From a virus (lineage: Duplodnaviria > Heunggongvirae > Uroviricota > Caudoviricetes), in IMG/VR virus record IMGVR_UViG_2925908680_000001: a stretch of DNA of 64,000 bases; one strand, 5' to 3'. Each line of letters begins with the position of its first letter. Position 1 is the stretch's first letter. The position numbers and the translations under genes are program-made. Of this stretch, positions 3,507-44,881 are shown piece by piece. The notes beneath the pieces were generated by a model. The model searched no databases and had not been told where the DNA came from. It worked only from the letters and a program-made list of their open reading frames with translations.

Positions 3507-4867
3507 GTCTGGTTAATTGGGAGGAGCACCGCGCCCGCTTTATAGCGTTGCGTGAAGAAAAAGGGATCACTGTAAAGGAATACTGTGAGGAGCATGGCCT
3601 TAGCTTCAATACAGCCAGAAAGCATCTCAATATGAAAAAAAATGAGGTGCGGTCGCAGGTAAAGACAACAAAAAAAAGCACCAAATCACCTGAAAAAAAA
3701 CGGGCGGGAAGAGCAACAAAAAAGCTGGAAGAGGGTGCAGAAAAAACAAAATTTACAGAAATTGACAATTCTCAGGGCGCAGGTTCTTTCCGAAGTATGC
3801 CGAGAAAGAAAACTTCGGATCATGAAAATAATGCAAATAATAACAATGAGATAAAAGAATCTGTCAGGAGATCATTGCGCGAAAAAATGGCGAAAATGAT
3901 CCCCGAAGAAGATAAAAGCGCCCCAAAAATTGAGGGATCTTCTGCAATGATCCCTGACGGTGCTGTGCAGCGTGCCACATTGCCCACTACGAATGTGGCT
4001 CGCGATATGATGAAGAACGGCGCAGAAGAACACCTGCGGTTAGCAATTCAAATGGCGCAAGAGCGCGCACTTCAGTATCAAAGCATTGTTGATCAGGAGG
4101 CCGAACGTCTACAGGCGGAAATAGACGCCTTGGGCGATAAAGAGCCAGAAGGAATGCACCCTGGGCAGCGCCTTCTCGGTCTAATCAGTGACGCGGCCTA
4201 CTACATGAATGATTTTATCAGTAGGTTGGCAGCTATATATCAGTCCGAACAAAAGCTGCGACAGGGGGATGAAAAGCTTCGTCAGAGCGCTCGCCAGCAA
4301 GCATTCAAAGAGGCTGAGGCCAGAGAAAAACTCGAATTAGCACGCCTACAGGCCGAACAGCGTGGCAAAGAGATTGAATATCGCATTGGCGCTGACGCAC
4401 GCGCAGCCAGAGTTATCGCCGCCGCTATACGTATGCGTGAGCGCGAGGAACTGGATGATATCGGTGTTGCTGAATACATCGAGCGCCAGGGGGTCAGCGT
4501 CCCGGCTATCCTCGCGGCGCGCGCGGCGAAAGCTATCACTCTTCTCGAACCACCTGTTTCTGACGTCAATGATGTTGATGATGAACAGCTGGACAAAGAG
4601 GCAAGGGAGTTTGCAACGCTTCAGGCTAACCATCCGCAATGGCTGGCAGAGCGCCGGGCGGATGTGGCAACCATTGTTGAAGAATTGGGGTGCGGAGATT
4701 ACGATCGCAATGGCGAGCGTAAAGCTGGAGAATTCGAGGCCAACGACGAAGAGCTGGATATTGACCCTTCGGCAACGGCTGAAATTTACGGTGATTATGA
4801 TGTATCTGATGCAGGGTATGACGCCGGAGATGATGATATCGCGATAGAACCGCCGGAGGATGATTAA
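3503..4867 (+). CDS. pacA: Terminase small subunit, PacA-like
   Basis: ORF track; overlaps start of the large terminase; basic N-terminus and acidic C-terminal tail; synteny with P1 pacA-pacB. Confidence 0.55.
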   Translation: MSLVNWEEHRARFIALREEKGITVKEYCEEHGLSFNTARKHLNMKKNEVRSQVKTTKKSTKSPEKKRAGRATKKLEEGAEKTKFTEIDNSQGAGSFRSMPRKKTSDHENNANNNNEIKESVRRSLREKMAKMIPEEDKSAPKIEGSSAMIPDGAVQRATLPTTNVARDMMKNGAEEHLRLAIQMAQERALQYQSIVDQEAERLQAEIDALGDKEPEGMHPGQRLLGLISDAAYYMNDFISRLAAIYQSEQKLRQGDEKLRQSARQQAFKEAEAREKLELARLQAEQRGKEIEYRIGADARAARVIAAAIRMREREELDDIGVAEYIERQGVSVPAILAARAAKAITLLEPPVSDVNDVDDEQLDKEAREFATLQANHPQWLAERRADVATIVEELGCGDYDRNGERKAGEFEANDEELDIDPSATAEIYGDYDVSDAGYDAGDDDIAIEPPEDD

Positions 4868-6375
4868 TGGCTGGCGGGCGCAAGATTAAATGCGTCACCA
4901 GCGATCCACGCTGGCGCGATATGGTAATCAAATACCGCTACAACTTTACCCAGGCTGTTGTCGATATTTTTGGGATGTTCCCCTCCCACCAGCAGCAGCA
5001 GATCATTCAGTCAGTGCAGGAAACGGGGAGTAGGACGACCGTCACGTCCGGACACGGAACGGGGAAGTCGTCCCTTACCGCGATGTTGCTGTTGATTTTT
5101 ATGATCCTGTTCCCCGATGCCCGTGTCATCATTGTTGCTAACAAGATAGGCCAGGTAAAAACAGGCGTATTCAAATACGTTAAACAGTATTGGGCGAATG
5201 CAGTTAAGCGTCATGGGTGGTTGCAGACCTATTTTGTCCTCTCTGACACCATGTTTTATGAGCGCTCCCGTAAGGGGATTTGGGAAGTTCTCTGCAAAGG
5301 TTATCGACTCGGCAACGAAGAAGCGCTGGCGGGGGAACACGCGGCACATTTGCTTCTAATTCTGGATGAAGCATCTGGTATATCTGATAAGGCGATCGGC
5401 GTAATGACCGGTGCTCTTACTGAAGAAGATAACCGGATGTTGATGCTATCCCAGCCAACAAGGCCAAGTGGTTATTTCTACGATTCGCACCATTCTCAAG
5501 CAAAAACCCCAGACAACCCGAAAGGGATCTGGACAGCAATTGTTCTTAACTCGGAAGAATCACCGTTCGTCACACCACAATTCATCAAGCAGAAGCTTCT
5601 GGAATATGGTGGGCGCGATTCTATTGAGTATATGGTCAAGGTGCTTGGTCAGTTCCCACGAGAAATTAACGGCTATTTGCTTGGTCGTGATGAATGCGAT
5701 CGCGCTGCTCGCCGCAAGGTGTTGTTGGAGAAAAACTGGGGATGGGTGGCAACGGCTGACGTTGGTAATGGGCGAGATAAGTCGGTCCTCAACATCTGCA
5801 AGGTATCTGGTCACAGGGATAAGCGGCGCGTTGTTAACTTTAAGGTAATGGAGATGCCTGGCACTATGGACCCATTGGCCTTTGCTGACTTTATATATAA
5901 CGAATGTACGCCGGAAAAATACCCGAATATAACAATCGCGGTTGATGCCGATGGTTTTGGTTCTGATACGTGTGCGCAGTTGGTGCGTCGTGGTGCGAAC
6001 CCGGTACGTATTCGGTGGGGAAAACCCATGTTTGCGAACAAAGACAGGGAGCGATTTGTTAATCAGCGTGCCTACGCAAATATTATGGCGCGTGATGCCA
6101 TAAAGTCAGGGCGTATGCGGATAGACAGTGACCCAAAAACGGCAGAGCAAGCGTCAAAAATCCCCTTTTTACTGAATGAGGAAGGGAAAATGGCGATGAT
6201 GCGCAAAGAGCACATGCGGCAAAAGCTAAACATCAAATCGCCTGACCGATGGGATACCTACTGCTTCACTATGCTGGTGGACTATGTGCCTGCTAATGAA
6301 GATATTGGTGCCGAAATGGCAACTTTCCGAGATCAGGTTCTGGCGGATATCGAAATGCCAGATCTGGATATATAA
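4867..6375 (+). CDS. pacB: Terminase large subunit, PacB-like
   Basis: Walker A SGHGTGKSS and Walker B LLLILDEASG in the translation; 502 aa. Confidence 0.85.
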   Translation: MAGGRKIKCVTSDPRWRDMVIKYRYNFTQAVVDIFGMFPSHQQQQIIQSVQETGSRTTVTSGHGTGKSSLTAMLLLIFMILFPDARVIIVANKIGQVKTGVFKYVKQYWANAVKRHGWLQTYFVLSDTMFYERSRKGIWEVLCKGYRLGNEEALAGEHAAHLLLILDEASGISDKAIGVMTGALTEEDNRMLMLSQPTRPSGYFYDSHHSQAKTPDNPKGIWTAIVLNSEESPFVTPQFIKQKLLEYGGRDSIEYMVKVLGQFPREINGYLLGRDECDRAARRKVLLEKNWGWVATADVGNGRDKSVLNICKVSGHRDKRRVVNFKVMEMPGTMDPLAFADFIYNECTPEKYPNITIAVDADGFGSDTCAQLVRRGANPVRIRWGKPMFANKDRERFVNQRAYANIMARDAIKSGRMRIDSDPKTAEQASKIPFLLNEEGKMAMMRKEHMRQKLNIKSPDRWDTYCFTMLVDYVPANEDIGAEMATFRDQVLADIEMPDLDI

Positions 6376-38574: not shown

Positions 38575-40236
38575 TTAACCTAACTTCGCCCAGGTATCAC
38601 GCAGCCCAACGGTGCGGTTAAATACCGGTTTTTCCGCCGTAGAATGGCGGCTGTCGAGGCAGAAATAACCTTCACGCTCAAACTGGAATGCTTTACCCGC
38701 TACCGCTTCTTTCAGCGACGGTTCAGCAAAACCCTGTTTGATCACCAGCGATTCCGGGTTAATCACCGACAGGAAATCATCCGCAGCACCTGGGTTCGGC
38801 ACGCTGAACAGACGATCGTACAGGCGGATTTCAACCGGCAGCGCATGTGCCGCGCTCACCCAGTGAATAACGCCTTTCACTTTACGACCATCTGCCGGAT
38901 CTTTGCTTAAGGTGTCGGCGTCATAAGTACAGAAGATGGTGGTGATATTGCCTTCGGCATCTTTCTCCACGCGTTCAGCCTTAATGACGTAAGCATTACG
39001 CAGACGCACTTCTTTACCCAGCACCAGACGTTTGTACTGCTTGTTAGCTTCTTCTCGGAAATCGGCGCGGTCGATCCAAATCTCACCGCTAAACGGCACC
39101 TGACGGTTACCCATTTCCGGTTTGTTTGGATGGTTCGGCATGGTGACCATTTCGCCTTCGCCCTGATAGTTTTCGATGACCAGTTTCACCGGATCGATAA
39201 CCGCCATTGCGCGCGGCGCATTTTCGTTGAGATCTTCACGGATGCAGGATTCCAGCGACGCCATCTCAATGGTGTTGTCCTGCTTGGTCACGCCGATGCG
39301 TTTGCAGAACTCACGAATAGAAGCCGCAGTGTAACCACGACGACGCAGACCGGAAATGGTCGGCATACGCGGGTCATCCCAGCCTTCAACGTGCTTGTCG
39401 GTCACCAGCAGGTTCAGCTTACGCTTGGACATCACAGTGTATTCCAGATTCAGGCGCGAGAATTCGTACTGGCGCGGGTGAACAGGAATGGTGATGTTGT
39501 CCAGCACCCAGTCGTAAAGGCGACGGTTGTCCTGGAACTCAAGCGTACACAGAGAGTGCGTAATACCTTCCAGCGCATCGCTGATGCAGTGGGTGAAGTC
39601 GTACATCGGGTAGATGCACCACTTGTTGCCAGTCTGGTGGTGTTCAGCAAACTTAATGCGATACAGCACCGGATCGCGCATCACGATAAACGGCGAAGCC
39701 ATGTCGATTTTCGCACGCAGGCAGGCTTTACCTTCTTCAAAACCACCGGCACGCATTTTTTCGAACAGCGCCAGGTTCTCTTCAACGCTGCGATCGCGGT
39801 ACGGGCTGTTTTTACCCGGCTGCGTCAGGGTGCCGCGGTATTCGCGGATCTGTTCCGGCGTCAGTTCGTCAACATACGCCAGGCCTTTGTTGATCAGTTC
39901 AACAGCATAGGCGTGGAGCTGATCAAAATAATCGGAGGAGTAACGGATGTTGCCAGACCAGTGAAAACCTAACCATTCAACGTCGTTTTTAATCGACTCG
40001 ACGTACTCGATATCTTCTTTTACCGGGTTAGTGTCGTCGAAACGCAGGTTGCACTGGCCTTTATAGTCCTGGGCGATCCCGAAGTTCAGGCAGATAGATT
40101 TCGCATGACCAATATGCAGATAGCCATTCGGTTCCGGCGGGAAACGGGTATGTACTGTGGTGTGCTTACCACTGGCCAGATCTTCATCGATGATCTGACG
40201 AATAAAGTTAGTCGGGCGGGCTTCTGCCTCACTCAT
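38575..40236 (-). CDS. glnS: Glutaminyl-tRNA synthetase (GlnRS), near-identical to host E. coli protein
   Basis: 553-aa translation matches E. coli GlnRS over essentially the full length from memory ([25 protein letters not shown]..., HIGH and VMSKR class I motifs); only the extreme C-terminus seems to differ. Confidence 0.95.
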
Positions 40237-40504
40237 TGTGGATTCCTCAAAGCGTAAACAACGTATAACAGCGTATGATCTTATAAGCCGAATAGGCTGA
40301 CAACCACTAGTTGATTAGAAATTGCTTTCTATCGTTATTTCAATAATGAGCTTTTTCATTAAGCCCACTTTTGCGCATAAGTAAATTAATGACAAATGGT
40401 ACACAATTGGAACCAAAAAGGATGTAAAGGTGCACCAAATTAGTGGTGTATTGGTGCACCTTTGGTTCAAGACTTTTTAAGTTCTAAAACCAACCTGAAA
40501 GACT

Positions 40505-40792
40505 TTATTTTGCTTCCTCAGACTCCGCTAACATGAGGATAGCATGGCGGATCATATTCAATTTGCTACGATTATGCTTTTTACTTAACGCATCAAGTAC
40601 CTGGTACTCGTATTCATTGAAACCAACACGAATAGATTTAAAATCACGTGGAGCGTCCTTATCGAGCACTTTGTTGTCTTCTGGTTGCTCACCCGGCACC
40701 AAATCAGCCTTACTTGCAAAATCCTCAATTCGGCGTTCAAGATCGGGGTCTTTTACTTCGGGGGCTTTTACCGATTTACGAGGCTTAATCAC
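40505..40792 (-). CDS. Ribbon-helix-helix partition/centromere-binding protein (ParG-like)
   Basis: 95 aa; C-terminal RHH-like FNEYEYQVLDALSKKHNRSKLNMIRHAILMLAE; coupled downstream of parA. Confidence 0.6.
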   Translation of the reverse strand: MIKPRKSVKAPEVKDPDLERRIEDFASKADLVPGEQPEDNKVLDKDAPRDFKSIRVGFNEYEYQVLDALSKKHNRSKLNMIRHAILMLAESEEAK

Positions 40793-41426
40793 TTAATAAC
40801 TCCTTAACCAACATCTGGATTTCACCTTTAGCTTTCCCGTTGTCCATCTCAACAACGCCCTTCCCTTCAGCCATGCAATCGCGGTAAACCTTACGATCAC
40901 GAATGATGGTTTTCAGCAACTTCAGTTGCGGATATTCAGCCAGGTACTCTTTGGCCTCATTGGTTTCATTCACAACCGGATTGGATGGGGCCATTGTTAA
41001 GACTGCGAACGCCTTAATGCTAGGATTAGGCATCAGGTCCAAAGCCTCTTCAAACACTTCAACAAAGTGTGCCAGCGTGTCTAAATCTGGTTGAGATGGT
41101 CTGAATGGGACCAACACAATATCTGCAGCGGTTATGCCTGTACGCATCTCTTTGCTATCGCGCCCGGCTGTATCAACAACTACAAATTCATAACGCTTAT
41201 CCAGATCGAGAAGTGTTTCTCGAATATTACCAAACTTCTGGACACAATGAATTACAGGAGAAACCTCTGCCGTGTTACGGTCAGCGGCCCAGCGGGCAGC
41301 TGTTCCTTGCTTGTCTGCATCTAGTAACACTACATCCTTATTTTCGCGGGCAAGCTCCGCACAGATGTTTACGCTTGTGGTTGATTTTCCACAGCCACCT
41401 TTTTGGCTGACTACCAATATAATCAT
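40785..41426 (-). CDS. parA: ParA-family partition ATPase (small type Ib)
   Basis: Deviant Walker A VVSQKGGCGKSTT; 213 aa. Confidence 0.8.
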   Translation of the reverse strand: MIILVVSQKGGCGKSTTSVNICAELARENKDVVLLDADKQGTAARWAADRNTAEVSPVIHCVQKFGNIRETLLDLDKRYEFVVVDTAGRDSKEMRTGITAADIVLVPFRPSQPDLDTLAHFVEVFEEALDLMPNPSIKAFAVLTMAPSNPVVNETNEAKEYLAEYPQLKLLKTIIRDRKVYRDCMAEGKGVVEMDNGKAKGEIQMLVKELLSD

Positions 41427-41711
41427 ATCCGTTCCTCGGTGTTATTTTGGTATCAAACTGGTTCCAAACAGAAGCCTTATTGATGCGGTTTTGGCTCTAT
41501 AGTGGAGTCATTATGCTTTGCAAAAGTATAACACTAATCATTCTAAATTTGCCCTCTGTTGCATCCTGTTTAACACGAAATCAGCACTAAATTGGAACCA
41601 GATACAAAGCAGCACCATAACAACACCGTTTTGGTACTAAAAGAGCACCAAACTAGAATCATAACGGTATAAAAAAGGCTGCAAATTGCAGCCTTTGAAG
41701 ATGTAGATTGG

Positions 41712-42083
41712 TTAATCAGGGAGTGAGTTTGCCAAATTCTGAGCAGAGCGGCTTTTCGGAACGCCTGGTTTTTTTACATCCTCTGAGACAGAGGTTTTTC
41801 CTTCAGTAGGTTCCCGAACTTCATGCGAAATTTCAAGAAACGAAACCAGCATTTTTCTGATCACTTCAGAGCTATTATCACCGGATAAAAGCGATGCCAA
41901 CATGGGAGGTAATCTGCTATCAACCTCGCCAAGAGCGATACCTGCAAGCATCGCAGTGCGCACCATATCATTGCGATCACTTAATGGATGGGCCTCAATT
42001 TTTGCCACAGCATATTGCTCACTGGCGTAAGCGTTAAGATCTGAACGAAGATAAAACATTATTTTTCGACGTTCTTTAGACAT
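41712..42083 (-). CDS. parR: ParR/StbB-like centromere-binding protein
   Basis: 123 aa directly downstream of parM; ParR-like N-terminal segment. Confidence 0.65.
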   Translation of the reverse strand: MSKERRKIMFYLRSDLNAYASEQYAVAKIEAHPLSDRNDMVRTAMLAGIALGEVDSRLPPMLASLLSGDNSSEVIRKMLVSFLEISHEVREPTEGKTSVSEDVKKPGVPKSRSAQNLANSLPD

Positions 42084-42093
42084 GGCAACCTCA

Positions 42094-43053
42094 TCAACCG
42101 ATAGATTTTAGACCATATACAAGAGCAAGTTGTGGATCATCAGCAACGAAAAACCTATCGTCACGAATGTTTACCTGCTCACGGATAGCATCAGCAACAA
42201 GCGGCGCGCCGCCACCAATTACCATAACATGTGTGTATCCTTTGAAATCACTGATCACATCCAGTACGCGTGTACGGAGTCGCTCTATGCTTGACGAAAT
42301 GGCTTTCTTAACATCATCAATAGCAGACGGATCGTTAATATTGTCGGTCAGATAATCCTCATCATCTCGATTAATGATTAATTGATCGACGTTATAATTA
42401 GAGGTTTCGGTATTAGCTTTTGCAAGTGCCTGTCTGACCTCTTTAGTTACCAGCGAAACGCCGAGATTAGAATCGCCAAATACGCGAGAAACGGCGGTCA
42501 TTTGCCCGGCAACCATCGACACATCCAGAGTAGTCCCGCCAAGATCAACAATAAGCACAGAATGCGCTGGCACAAGGCTGTCGCACAGACCGATCCCTGC
42601 GGGTATTGACTCCGGGCGCACAGTCACTTTTTTGATAGTAAAAACCTGACCTTTGTTAAGGGTGACTGGTCGCATCAGGCTGGCCTTTTTCCGCTCAATA
42701 TTTTTCATGTTGTATTGTGCGTCGTCGTCATAAAACTCTGCCAGTGGCAACGTGACTACTATTTCCACTTCTTGAGGCTCAATGCCACTTGTAAGCAGGG
42801 CATGATGAACAGCAAGCACATTAAGCGGGCTGTATTGCCATTCAACGTTATTCGTTGGCAGAACATCCGGCGAGATCAAGTCATATGAATATTTTTCGTC
42901 ATCAATGATGTAGTTAAACGTTTTTCCTGCGCCAAATGTGGCGGACCATCCACGTTTAAAACTGTTCGGGCAGATATGGGTTCGAGTTTCCCCGTCTTGT
43001 TCCCACAGCATTTTGATATTGGTAGAACCATCGTCGATAAAAATGCGCATCAT
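42094..43053 (-). CDS. parM: ParM/StbA actin-like segregation ATPase
   Basis: Start at MMRIFIDDGSTNIK; strong similarity to R1 ParM as recalled (SPNSFKR, NVLAVHHALLTSG, DLGGTTLD, THVMVIGGGA); 320 aa. Confidence 0.85.
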   Translation of the reverse strand: MMRIFIDDGSTNIKMLWEQDGETRTHICPNSFKRGWSATFGAGKTFNYIIDDEKYSYDLISPDVLPTNNVEWQYSPLNVLAVHHALLTSGIEPQEVEIVVTLPLAEFYDDDAQYNMKNIERKKASLMRPVTLNKGQVFTIKKVTVRPESIPAGIGLCDSLVPAHSVLIVDLGGTTLDVSMVAGQMTAVSRVFGDSNLGVSLVTKEVRQALAKANTETSNYNVDQLIINRDDEDYLTDNINDPSAIDDVKKAISSSIERLRTRVLDVISDFKGYTHVMVIGGGAPLVADAIREQVNIRDDRFFVADDPQLALVYGLKSIG

Positions 43054-43071
43054 ATTGCTCCACTTCTGAGA

Positions 43072-43205
43072 CACATTTGAGAAAGAATTGAATCTTATAT
43101 GAGAAAACAAAATAAAACCAGAAGTTGAGAGAGCAAAAAGCACCAGATTTGAGACAAACCAGAGACAAACTAGAGACACACTAGAGACAAGTATGAGAAA
43201 CAAGA
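43072..43205. repeat. parC-like centromere: about 8-10 direct repeats with 10-11 bp period
   Basis: tttgagaaag, tatgagaaaac, gttgagagagc, tttgagacaaa, ccagagacaaa, ctagagacaca, ctagagacaag, tatgagaaaca immediately upstream of parM. Confidence 0.6.
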
Positions 43206-43219
43206 AATCTTAAGAGTGA

Positions 43220-43240
43220 AAATCACAAAGTGGAGAAGAT
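43220..43240 (+). promoter_or_regulatory. Late-promoter-like element aaatcacaaagt
   Basis: Recurring motif 30 bp upstream of the PAAR gene. Confidence 0.4.
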
Positions 43241-43261
43241 TTAAGAAAAAGGAGGTGTTAG

Positions 43262-43546
43262 ATGAGTGCAATAGCGACCTGTGACACAGTTTGTTCCGGT
43301 CATGGAGGATTCCCTCCGCGACCTGTAGCAGAAACAGTTTCCTGGTTTACCGTAAATGGAAAGCCAGTTGTTGTAGATGGTGCCATGTTTCCCAGTCACA
43401 CTGACGGTAACAGTGCACATCCAGGGGCAGCTGTATCGACGCGAGTATGGTTTTCGATAGGTGGAAAGGGAGTTGTCTGTGTAGGCGATCCGCTTTCTTG
43501 TGGTTCTGTTATCGCCAACGGCGAGGATATTTTTCAGGTTGCATAA
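43262..43546 (+). CDS. PAAR-domain spike-tip protein
   Basis: 94 aa with PAAR-like pattern CSGHGGFPPRP ... GDPLSCGS. Confidence 0.7.
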   Translation: MSAIATCDTVCSGHGGFPPRPVAETVSWFTVNGKPVVVDGAMFPSHTDGNSAHPGAAVSTRVWFSIGGKGVVCVGDPLSCGSVIANGEDIFQVA

Positions 43547-44352
43547 TGCTTGATTCAATAGGTGAAGTTAAAGCCTTCAAAATTCTGTCAGATGCCGGTA
43601 TCTCTACACCAGAATCTATAACCATAAGCCGGGCAGCTTCTGTAAAAGCCTCATCGCTCGCCAGCGCCATACAGGGAATAGTTCACGCCGATAAAACCTA
43701 TCCTGATTCTGTTTCGGCCTGGACTACTCAATTGCTTGGCTTTTCTGAACAGCTCAATGAGGCCAGCAAAGCGTCTTCATCACTGGCTGATTCTCTTTCC
43801 CCATACACCAAGCCATCAGAGCTGTTACAGATGAAGATTGGCTGGGAATGCTACGCAAAAGGTAACGAGCTGACCCCCATACCTGCTTTCGCCCTTGTTG
43901 AGGGAATGGGGAATGTTTCCATTCCGCAATCTCTAACGGACGCATTGACGGCGCTAAAACTTGATGCTCTGAAAACCGCCATGAACGCCATTAACGCAAA
44001 AATTGAAGCTGCCGGAAGTGCTGGTGGTGGTGAAAGCAATGGTGGACAGGGTGGTGCTGGGGGCGCTCAGGCTCCAGTCATTACTCAGGATGAAATTGAT
44101 GCTTTACGGGAAGCAGTGACAGCCGCCGAAGTTTTACTCTCCGAAATTAACTCAGCAAGTGAGGGTGTCGTAGCCCTTACAGGTCGCATTAAAACGTCAA
44201 CCACTCAGGCAACCAAAGGTTTAGAGAACGCTGTCGCCATCACGTTAACTGGTTCTCTACTGGATGATGCAGTAATGAGTCCGGCAATCAGTTTAATCAT
44301 GCCACAAGGCGTTATCGATGCGCTCCAAAAGAACACCAAAAAGGAACCATAG
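43546..44352 (+). CDS. Hypothetical protein (Ala/Ser/Gly-rich)
   Basis: ORF track frame with ATG at 43546. Confidence 0.45.
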   Translation: MLDSIGEVKAFKILSDAGISTPESITISRAASVKASSLASAIQGIVHADKTYPDSVSAWTTQLLGFSEQLNEASKASSSLADSLSPYTKPSELLQMKIGWECYAKGNELTPIPAFALVEGMGNVSIPQSLTDALTALKLDALKTAMNAINAKIEAAGSAGGGESNGGQGGAGGAQAPVITQDEIDALREAVTAAEVLLSEINSASEGVVALTGRIKTSTTQATKGLENAVAITLTGSLLDDAVMSPAISLIMPQGVIDALQKNTKKEP

Positions 44353-44422
44353 AAACACCACTTAGGCACACAAAAGGATGTAAATTGGTACATGTTTAAC
44401 ACCAAAAATGAACCTGGAGAGG

Positions 44423-44881
44423 ATGGTTTTGAAAAAGATAATTTTGATTGTAAATGCGCTTTTAGCCATTTCTGGAATTTACCGAACAACGACGGCAGTT
44501 ATCGAACACATCAGGTATGTCCGATCGCTTGAAGACTCAAAATCACAACTGGAAAGCACGAACAACACGCTTTCTACCGCATTACAGTTAAGTGAGAACG
44601 CTCGCTCAGCCATGCTGACCGAAAACGAAAGAATTAAAGCACTGGAAAAGGAGTACCAGCGCAAAACAGCAGAACTGAATGCCAACCTAATCAAACAACG
44701 AGAGGAAAGCCAGAATGAAATCACTCGCCTTGAAAATACGTTGCGCCGTGCTGGGATTAACGATGTGCGTGTACCTGATGACGTTATCAGGATGCAGCGG
44801 GAACGGGCAAAAGCCATCAACCAGCGTGCCAGTGAAAATTACCGTAGAAGCCACCAGCAAGCCGCAGGCAAATCTGATTGA
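44423..44881 (+). CDS. Rz-like i-spanin
   Basis: N-terminal TM segment (KKIILIVNALLAISGIY) then coiled coil; RBS ggagagg; embedded lipoprotein ORF in +1 frame. Confidence 0.5.
   Translation: MVLKKIILIVNALLAISGIYRTTTAVIEHIRYVRSLEDSKSQLESTNNTLSTALQLSENARSAMLTENERIKALEKEYQRKTAELNANLIKQREESQNEITRLENTLRRAGINDVRVPDDVIRMQRERAKAINQRASENYRRSHQQAAGKSD

Follow-up and report, generated by a model that had tools for sequence, protein, structure and literature searches.

Two partition systems of different type in tandem in a D6-like phage-plasmid, with four phased repeat arrays and a mosaic type II allele

The stretch of DNA analysed here (64,000 nucleotides of the IMG/VR record IMGVR_UViG_2925908680_000001, hereafter the window) belongs to a D6-like phage-plasmid of the P1 family, and we describe its double partition (par) locus, which matches phage D6 at 91.7% identity with 88% of the query covered (megablast of 40250-44420). 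Four par genes lie on the minus strand between glnS and upfC, in the same order and orientation as in D6 (NC_050154 / MF356679), where they are annotated as orf58 (StbA/ParM), orf59 (StbB/ParR), orf60 (ParA-like) and orf61 (hypothetical) and are flanked by the glutaminyl-tRNA synthetase gene (glnS) and P1-like upfC/upfB. A repA-like gene of D6 is found about 10 kb from the par locus. No further partition genes are annotated in the rest of the 91-kb D6 genome, which implies that the inheritance of D6-like elements depends on this locus.

With the same query, megablast retrieves the par locus from 122 plasmid records in PLSDB, 120 of which are non-mobilizable by MOB-suite prediction, and the hosts are Escherichia, Salmonella and Shigella together with one Enterobacter. 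Among complete E. coli genomes, 101 of 5,426 carry it. The set 'cop, parA, stbB and parM' has been given as the partition system of the D6-like Salmonella plasmid pYU39_89 (PMC6799933), and combinations of a type I system that uses a ribbon-helix-helix (RHH) protein with a type II system are frequent, with 971 PLSDB accessions (PMC13245405). Because D6 annotates the same four genes and the partition set has been listed for pYU39_89, the gene-level finding is already on record. All four par genes of the window are real, and a double par locus is known as a kind of system and is ordinary. What we add, from sequence comparison, are the arrays that probably serve the type Ib system as centromere or operator, a fourth, distal array that probably belongs with them and brackets the type II cassette, and evidence for a probable exchange of the ParR/parC allele.

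The first of the two systems is a type Ib pair. Its ParA (40785-41426, minus strand, 213 aa) is an ATPase of the Walker type and has the deviant Walker A motif SQKGGCGKST and no N-terminal helix-turn-helix (HTH) domain; the pattern KGGxxK[ST] is matched by MIILVVSQKGGCGKSTT, as read from the translation. Family matches include AAA_31, CbiA, MipZ and VirC1, and the NCBIfam model ParA_partition is matched at 7e-48 with its full 203-position profile covered. The closest solved relative is ParF of TP228 (4dzz, 1.5e-18), aligned over residues 3-211, and the protein is 100% identical to D6 orf60. A type Ia system, with a large ParA of about 400 aa and an HTH ParB, is annotated nowhere in D6, and in the window ParA, ParB and RepA of P1 have no tblastn match at E<=0.01, in line with the earlier observation that both systems are unlike the large ParA/ParB of P1.

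Directly downstream, and overlapping parA by 8 nt, is the gene of a 95-aa candidate centromere-binding protein (40505-40792, minus strand), which is type Ib ParB/ParG-like; its N-terminal tail is basic, and a strand-helix-helix is predicted for about residues 52-94. It is 100% identical to D6 orf61. An exhaustive HMMER search returned 124 small homologues of 54-100 aa, and among the 72 that were aligned, 26 match NikA-like, 18 match RHH_1 and 13 match DUF6290, all of which are RHH families. RHH domains fold as dimers. These family matches make an RHH assignment probable for the 95-aa protein itself, and we call it the RHH protein below. A match to AcrF10, obtained in a search of PDB with a profile built from close relatives of the protein, was judged spurious and was set aside.

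The second system is of type II. ParM/StbA, an actin-like segregation ATPase (42094-43050/43053, minus strand), matches StbA_N (PF06406) at 5e-69 and the ParM C-terminal domain (PF21523) at 9e-56, and aligns with R1 ParM (1mwk) at 5e-110 over residues 2-319. The mechanical open reading frame (ORF) call, 42094-43203, adds 50 codons to ParM from a TTG inside the parC iterons; the alignment with R1 ParM, the D6 annotation and a GGAG box place the true start at the ATG at 43053 or 43050, and the second of these, at 43050, is probably the one used. The gene of ParR/StbB, a 123-aa type II centromere-binding adaptor (41712-42083, minus strand), follows parM directly, at a distance of 10 nt; its product matches PF10784 (Plasmid_stab_B) at 2.9e-13, above the 25-bit cut-off, and pB171 ParR (2jd3) at 3.9e-7.

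Upstream of parM lies the type II parC (43068-43205), which consists of 11-bp GAGAC iterons of the GAGACAAACTA type in two blocks. One block (43068-43111) has four units and is out of phase by 6 nt with the other (43151-43205), which has five strong GAGAC units and, in phase with them, two weaker ones at 43129 and 43140, so that seven are in phase. Tandem Repeats Finder reports a period of 11 at 43151-43190 (3.6 copies, 89% matches, score 66), and the autocorrelation of parC peaks at lags of 11, 22 and 33. The initial annotation had described two different partition systems lying head-to-tail, a small ParA with an RHH partner and an R1-like ParM-ParR with an upstream parC-like repeat array, and the profile and structure-family matches bear out this description for both the type Ib and the type II ParMRC genes.

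The two systems are separated by an intrinsic terminator of parM-parR (41668-41696, minus strand), in which AAAGGCUGCA-AUU-UGCAGCCUUU is followed by a U run. The hairpin at 41674-41696 folds with a free energy of -14.5 kcal/mol (z -5.2), none of 200 shuffles folds as well, and it is invariant in four relatives. A generic terminator scan missed it and folding confirmed it, and the hairpin is likely to be the parMR terminator, so that the two par systems form separate tandem transcription units. For the parA-RHH operon, a candidate extended -10 element, TGTTATACT, lies at 41525-41533 on the minus strand and has no other match in the 64 kb. The pattern TGnTATACT at this place is invariant in the four relatives within a poorly conserved spacer, which suggests that TGTTATACT is an extended -10 promoter flanked by two repeat arrays.

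These arrays were located with a matrix derived from outside the window. The flanks of the ParA-RHH operons of E. coli CP122510 and S. dysenteriae CP026816 carry runs of a degenerate unit, roughly AAATTGGTRYC, that recurs every 11 bp. We built a position weight matrix (PWM) from 19 units taken from the downstream arrays of these two relatives only, whose RHH proteins are 77-86% identical to that of the window, and summed its scores at 4, 6 or 8 positions 11 bp apart, at every position of the window and on both strands (the phased scan). The four best loci in the 64 kb are four 11-bp-phased arrays of units that read roughly WWWTGGTRYC, with six-unit sums of 39.7 (41444-41509), 36.0 (41606-41671), 25.6 (44343-44408) and 21.9 (40393-40458). 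The next sum, 8.7, still falls upstream of parA, and the best locus elsewhere reaches 0.2. In 200 block shuffles the window-wide maximum has a mean of 0.5 (standard deviation 3.6), and the largest value is 10.7. The signal is given by a period of 11 alone, with periods of 7-10 and 12-15 reaching at most 11. Simple motif counts (TTGGT, TGGWWCC) show weak clustering, and the 11-bp phase is decisive.

Two of the arrays lie upstream of parA and rank as the top two in the window. The proximal one (41433-41520, phased sums 37-40) has the putative promoter on one side and the start codon of parA on the other; its GG cores are kept across the four relatives though the region is only 50-78% identical. 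The distal upstream array (41572-41693, about 10 units, phased sums 36-43) overlaps at its end the parMR terminator hairpin. We also observed that the arms of this hairpin, AATTTGCAGCC / AAATTGCAGCC (41677-41693), score 8-9 bits as repeat units and are invariant in the four relatives; the structure may be both a terminator and a binding site. The downstream array (40387-40474, about 8 units at 11 bp, rank 4) lies between the stop codon of the RHH gene and glnS, is 100% identical in D6, and includes a perfect 13-nt inverted repeat, AAAGGTGCACCAA / TTGGTGCACCTTT, at 40426-40438 and 40451-40463. The fourth array (44321-44408, 8 units at 11 bp, rank 3, with sums of 25.6 for six and 35.3 for eight units) is 2.6 kb away, beyond ParMRC, upfC and upfB. 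It covers the last 10 codons of upfB (…LQKNTKKEP*), an intergenic gap of 55 bp and the start codon (ATG) of the ORF that follows (44408-44881).

Clusters of half-sites had been noted earlier at 40430-40475, 41430-41470 and 41585-41650. They are real and highly non-random, coincide with three of the top four phased arrays, and are best explained as RHH-protein sites with a centromere or operator role; within the whole window, the density of TGGTNC/GNACCA peaks at 40391-40490 and 41591-41690. Repeat arrays adjoining the operon are expected of a type Ib system, and the four phased arrays are likely to be the binding sites (centromere or operator) of the RHH protein. The parC core holds a lone unit of this type (43139-43149, 8.5 bits), which chance can account for and which was not counted as evidence of cross-talk between the two systems.

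D6, CP122510 and S. dysenteriae CP026816 each have all four arrays, with the fourth at the same place as in the window. In S. dysenteriae the fourth array carries many substitutions and keeps the phased motif, with a score of 35.3. The region upstream of parA is 78% identical between the window and D6 despite an identical RHH protein, and the phased scores are retained; in the alignment of this region across four relatives the mean identity is 76%, and the GG cores, TGnTATACT and the ribosome-binding site are kept. The signal is specific to these loci. No array was detected in the other 75 kb of D6 (phased scan maximum -0.1), in a P1 locus of 14.8 kb that takes in the homologous upfB/Rz junction (maximum -4.0), where P1 UpfB has a different end, or in two loci with different type Ib systems, the pB171-type double par locus of pCE10A and an IncK2/Z ParA locus (maxima -7.8 and -8.7).

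The ParA-RHH pair also stands alone, beside a RepB replicon in the RepB plasmid of Enterobacteriaceae Kacie_13 and in an IncI1/MOBF plasmid of Serratia ureilytica. Arrays accompany both of these stand-alone operons (three in Kacie_13 and five in Serratia), some of them beyond a neighbouring gene, and because stand-alone operons carry several, dispersed arrays are a trait of this RHH protein family. In the Serratia plasmid, three further arrays (4510-5354) bracket a 630-nt gene (4568-5197) of unknown function downstream of the par operon, an arrangement that echoes the window arrays that bracket other genes.

If we consider the locus as a whole, its similarity to D6 is uneven. Sliding identity between the window and D6 is 99-100% at 40237-41436 and again from about 43337 on, and the segment between them (41437-43336), which holds the parA upstream arrays, parR, parM, parC and the 5' end of upfC, is 47-86% identical. 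Both recombination boundaries are sharp; one falls a short way upstream of the start codon of parA, and the other within the 5' part of upfC, a PAAR gene. Within the segment, ParM is 93% identical to its D6 counterpart in protein and 72-86% in DNA, ParR is 56% identical, and the outer parC iteron block has no alignment to D6. Because the ParM protein remains 93% identical despite a DNA identity of 72-86%, the mosaic segment represents an old allele under purifying selection and not recent drift. The allele of the window is present at >=94.7% identity in 18 of the 101 E. coli D6-like plasmids, the best being NZ_CP172188.1 at 99.3%. This pattern indicates that ParR and the outer parC iterons were exchanged by recombination as a unit, and such an exchange would most likely have produced a different type II specificity or incompatibility allele.

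Taken together, these observations make it probable that the D6-like double par locus combines two mechanistically different segregation machines in tandem, with one RHH protein acting on four arrays and with an exchanged type II allele. Under this interpretation both systems would be active. The small ParA would bind the nucleoid as an ATP dimer, and the 95-aa protein, through its C-terminal RHH dimer, would bind the degenerate repeats spaced one helical turn (11 bp) apart, while its basic N-terminal tail would stimulate the ATPase of ParA, so that plasmids become spaced over the nucleoid as in TP228 ParFG and pB171 par2. The two upstream arrays that flank the extended -10 would also serve as an autoregulatory operator. 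In the type II system, as in R1, the GAGAC iterons of parC would become coated with ParR, and sister plasmids would be driven apart by filaments of the actin-like ParM. The distal array would be a further site for the same RHH protein.

Several observations weigh against this interpretation or against parts of it. ParA scores 162.8 bits with NCBIfam ParA_partition (NF041546), its best-scoring family, yet below the curated cut-off of 180. The 95-aa protein itself has no Pfam or NCBIfam match, and its RHH fold is assigned from family-level evidence; the profile of its family aligns weakly to CopG (1b01/2cpg) over residues 47-87 with an E of about 0.4, and its AlphaFold2 monomer is poor (mean predicted confidence, pLDDT, of 57), with helices at 60-72 and 77-94 after a possible strand segment. 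PMC6799933 names the RHH gene 'cop', so that for its authors the product was a regulator of copy number or transcription and not a centromere-binding protein. The repeat unit is quasi-palindromic, with a GGTACC core, which makes its orientation and exact register ambiguous. The fourth array overlaps coding sequence, and part of its conservation in close relatives could come from the genes. As for the promoters, a generic sigma-70 scan performs at chance (8 promoter-like sites against 7.4 expected), and a consensus scan of the parC iteron blocks and of the gap between them gave no promoter-like site, so the parMR promoter is not placed.

The distal array at 44321-44408 could instead be non-functional, either as a decayed remnant of an earlier arrangement or as a by-product of coding sequence and A/T-rich composition, a reading encouraged by its overlap with coding sequence where upfB ends and where the following ORF begins, by units that are weaker on average than those upstream of parA (only three score >=7 bits), and by the near identity of three of the four relatives compared there. 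We consider this unlikely. The phased sum of this array, 25.6-35.3, greatly exceeds the largest shuffle value, 10.7, and nothing else in the 64 kb scores higher except the arrays upstream of parA; the S. dysenteriae copy, despite its many substitutions, scores even higher, at 35.3. Moreover, P1 has a homologous upfB with no array at the junction, and extra distal arrays are a family trait, as the five arrays of Serratia and the three of Kacie_13 illustrate.

A second alternative assigns the RHH protein mainly to transcription, as a CopG/omega-like regulator whose arrays are operators for parA, glnS and the gene downstream of upfB, with ParMRC doing the partitioning and ParA being accessory or vestigial. 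The name 'cop' and the ParA score below the equivalog cut-off fit such a role, and so does the position of the arrays, which adjoin the start of parA, lie about 150-240 bp upstream of glnS and extend over the start codon of the 44408 ORF; type Ib RHH centromere-binding proteins are, furthermore, also repressors (PMC5016525). Regulation and partition are, however, compatible in type Ib systems. A vestigial ParA is difficult to reconcile with an RHH gene overlapping a parA that is full-length and keeps its deviant Walker A intact, with 100% conservation of ParA in D6 while the adjacent DNA diverged, or with the ParA-RHH pair being the sole par-like locus beside the RepB replicon of the Kacie_13 plasmid, and we regard a mainly regulatory role as improbable.

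An extension of the interpretation that we prefer, namely two segregation machines with one RHH protein on four arrays, is that this protein joins the four arrays in a single looped or bridged complex that encloses ParMRC and cross-regulates the parMR terminator and its read-through, glnS and the 44408 gene. If this were true, a phage-plasmid would have, in one small protein, a link from both segregation machines to the expression of cargo and late genes. The idea resembles omega of pSM19035 and the cross-talk of ParB in pB171, from which lineage and geometry differ, and we hold it to be a doubtful, speculative model.

The earlier annotation had also pointed to a motif shared by the two ends of the locus, at 40421 and 44372, as a possible second centromere or as the footprint of a captured plasmid-maintenance cassette. 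The motif is real and is present in both places: the exact 12-mer AAAGGATGTAAA occurs at 40417-40428 and 44373-44384, slightly displaced from those positions, and it has no further exact copy in the 64 kb; in full, the two places share exactly the 13-mer AAAAGGATGTAAA. When a 4.2-kb region is simulated with a first-order Markov model, a repeated 12-mer turns up one or more times in 44% of the runs, and as many overlapping 12-mer pairs as were observed (two) in 20%; AAAAGGATGTAAA alone is therefore not evidence of anything, because such a repeat is within chance. AAAGGATGTAAA corresponds to a single 11-bp unit together with the A-rich beginning of the unit after it, inside the downstream array and the fourth array, and the copy at 44373 thus sits in a fourth array of the same repeat, which comes close to the idea of a second centromere. 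As to the cassette, in P1 the uhr-hrdC-dmt block is directly divergent from and abuts upfC-upfB, and in D6-like genomes glnS and both par operons fill this dmt/upfC junction. Because upfC and upfB are P1-core genes, the insertion relative to P1 ends before upfC and not at 44373, so the comparison with D6 and P1 does not place a cassette boundary at the motif.

It is very improbable that the two AAAGGATGTAAA copies mark the ends, duplicated or recombined, of a plasmid-maintenance cassette that a P1-like backbone captured: the 13-mer does have just two occurrences in the 64 kb, which are both on the plus strand and bracket the par genes, and glnS and both par systems are indeed extra DNA relative to P1, but a 13-mer repeat arises within 4.2 kb by chance in about 20% of simulations, the two flanks share the repeat motif alone (69-71% over 26-34 nt) with no duplicated junction, the right-hand copy lies beyond upfC/upfB in P1-type backbone, that copy is one base off in D6 and reads AATTTGAATCC in S. 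dysenteriae where the phased array persists, and the same arrays surround stand-alone operons on other plasmids.

Several observations concern the neighbouring genes. The RHH gene is followed directly by a full-length glnS (38575-40236, minus strand), whose product is 99% identical to D6 GlnS. Given that the downstream array is about 150-240 bp upstream of its start codon, the expression of glnS could respond to the RHH protein; the glnS of D6-like plasmids has already been discussed (PMC6799933). In three otherwise unrelated plasmids, a gene for a tyrosine recombinase/site-specific integrase is found convergent to and just downstream of the type Ib parA-parB pair (Kacie_13 4459-5250, Serratia IncI1 5326-6141 and pCE10A 5052-5861, in coordinates of the loci examined), and parA-parB with a recombinase may form a recurrent module of partition and multimer resolution. 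In D6-like elements glnS occupies the position that the recombinase gene has in these three plasmids. On the other side of the locus, the product of the ORF at 44408-44881 (plus strand) has an N-terminal hydrophobic segment with a coiled-coil-like remainder; the ORF is found after upfB at the position of the P1 Rz-like gene, and has no significant similarity to P1 Rz-like (E 0.25). With as many as 3 mismatches allowed, the window has no match to a consensus of the P1 C1 operator.

D6-like phage-plasmids are common in E. coli, Salmonella and Shigella. In practical terms, the probable type Ib binding arrays are now located, including one outside the obvious operon, and the type II adaptor and centromere can be treated as exchangeable alleles, with the type Ib proteins fixed. 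The arrays and the allele provide concrete targets for work on stability, incompatibility and curing, and they explain how related prophage-plasmids might coexist. The current understanding of partition is unchanged, type Ib and type II pairs being already well documented.

Among the known systems, that of pSM19035, in which the RHH protein omega of the delta/omega pair has several dispersed parS arrays and partition sites double as operators (PMC5016525), resembles the window in architecture only, that is, in separate short-repeat arrays near different genes. That system comes from Firmicutes, its repeats are heptads of 7 bp and its genes are transcribed separately; no homology is expected. 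The ParF-ParG-parH system of TP228 provides the closest solved relative of ParA, ParF, and it uses a small centromere-binding protein with a flexible N-terminal tail and a C-terminal RHH, an organisation that the 95-aa protein probably shares. The TP228 centromere consists of short boxes with AT-rich spacers, and further repeats near the promoter act in regulation (PMC5016525). The RHH protein of the window has no detectable similarity to ParG (no PDB match), and its repeats differ in sequence and layout, with arrays that are also downstream and distant. For the type II system, the likeness to ParMRC of R1 consists of a strongly similar ParM and of 11-bp iterons in two blocks upstream of parM, the parC of R1 being split as well (PMC5016525). 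It differs in that the ParR of the window fits the StbB/pB171 family model and not any solved R1 protein, in the iteron sequence, and in that a promoter between the iteron blocks was not located by the consensus scan.

The comparison with pB171, which we made on the pB171-type locus of pCE10A, shows likenesses and clear differences. The par2 system of pB171 has repeat sites upstream and downstream of its type Ib operon, parC1 and parC2 (PMC4270457). The operons of the pB171-type locus are divergent and share parC1, whereas those of the window are in tandem with a terminator between them. ParA, ParM and ParR are 43%, 42.5% and 31% identical to their counterparts in the window, ParB and the RHH protein of the window are unalignable (blastp E 0.13), the repeats differ (phased scan -7.8), and the fourth, distal array distinguishes the window from pB171. 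Membership in the pB171 par2 lineage was considered and is ruled out by the ParB result, the different repeats and the tandem arrangement. The ParR fold family (2jd3) is common to both, and pB171, in which a type II system (par1, ParMRC) likewise stands beside a type Ib system (par2), is the nearest named analogue of the locus described here.

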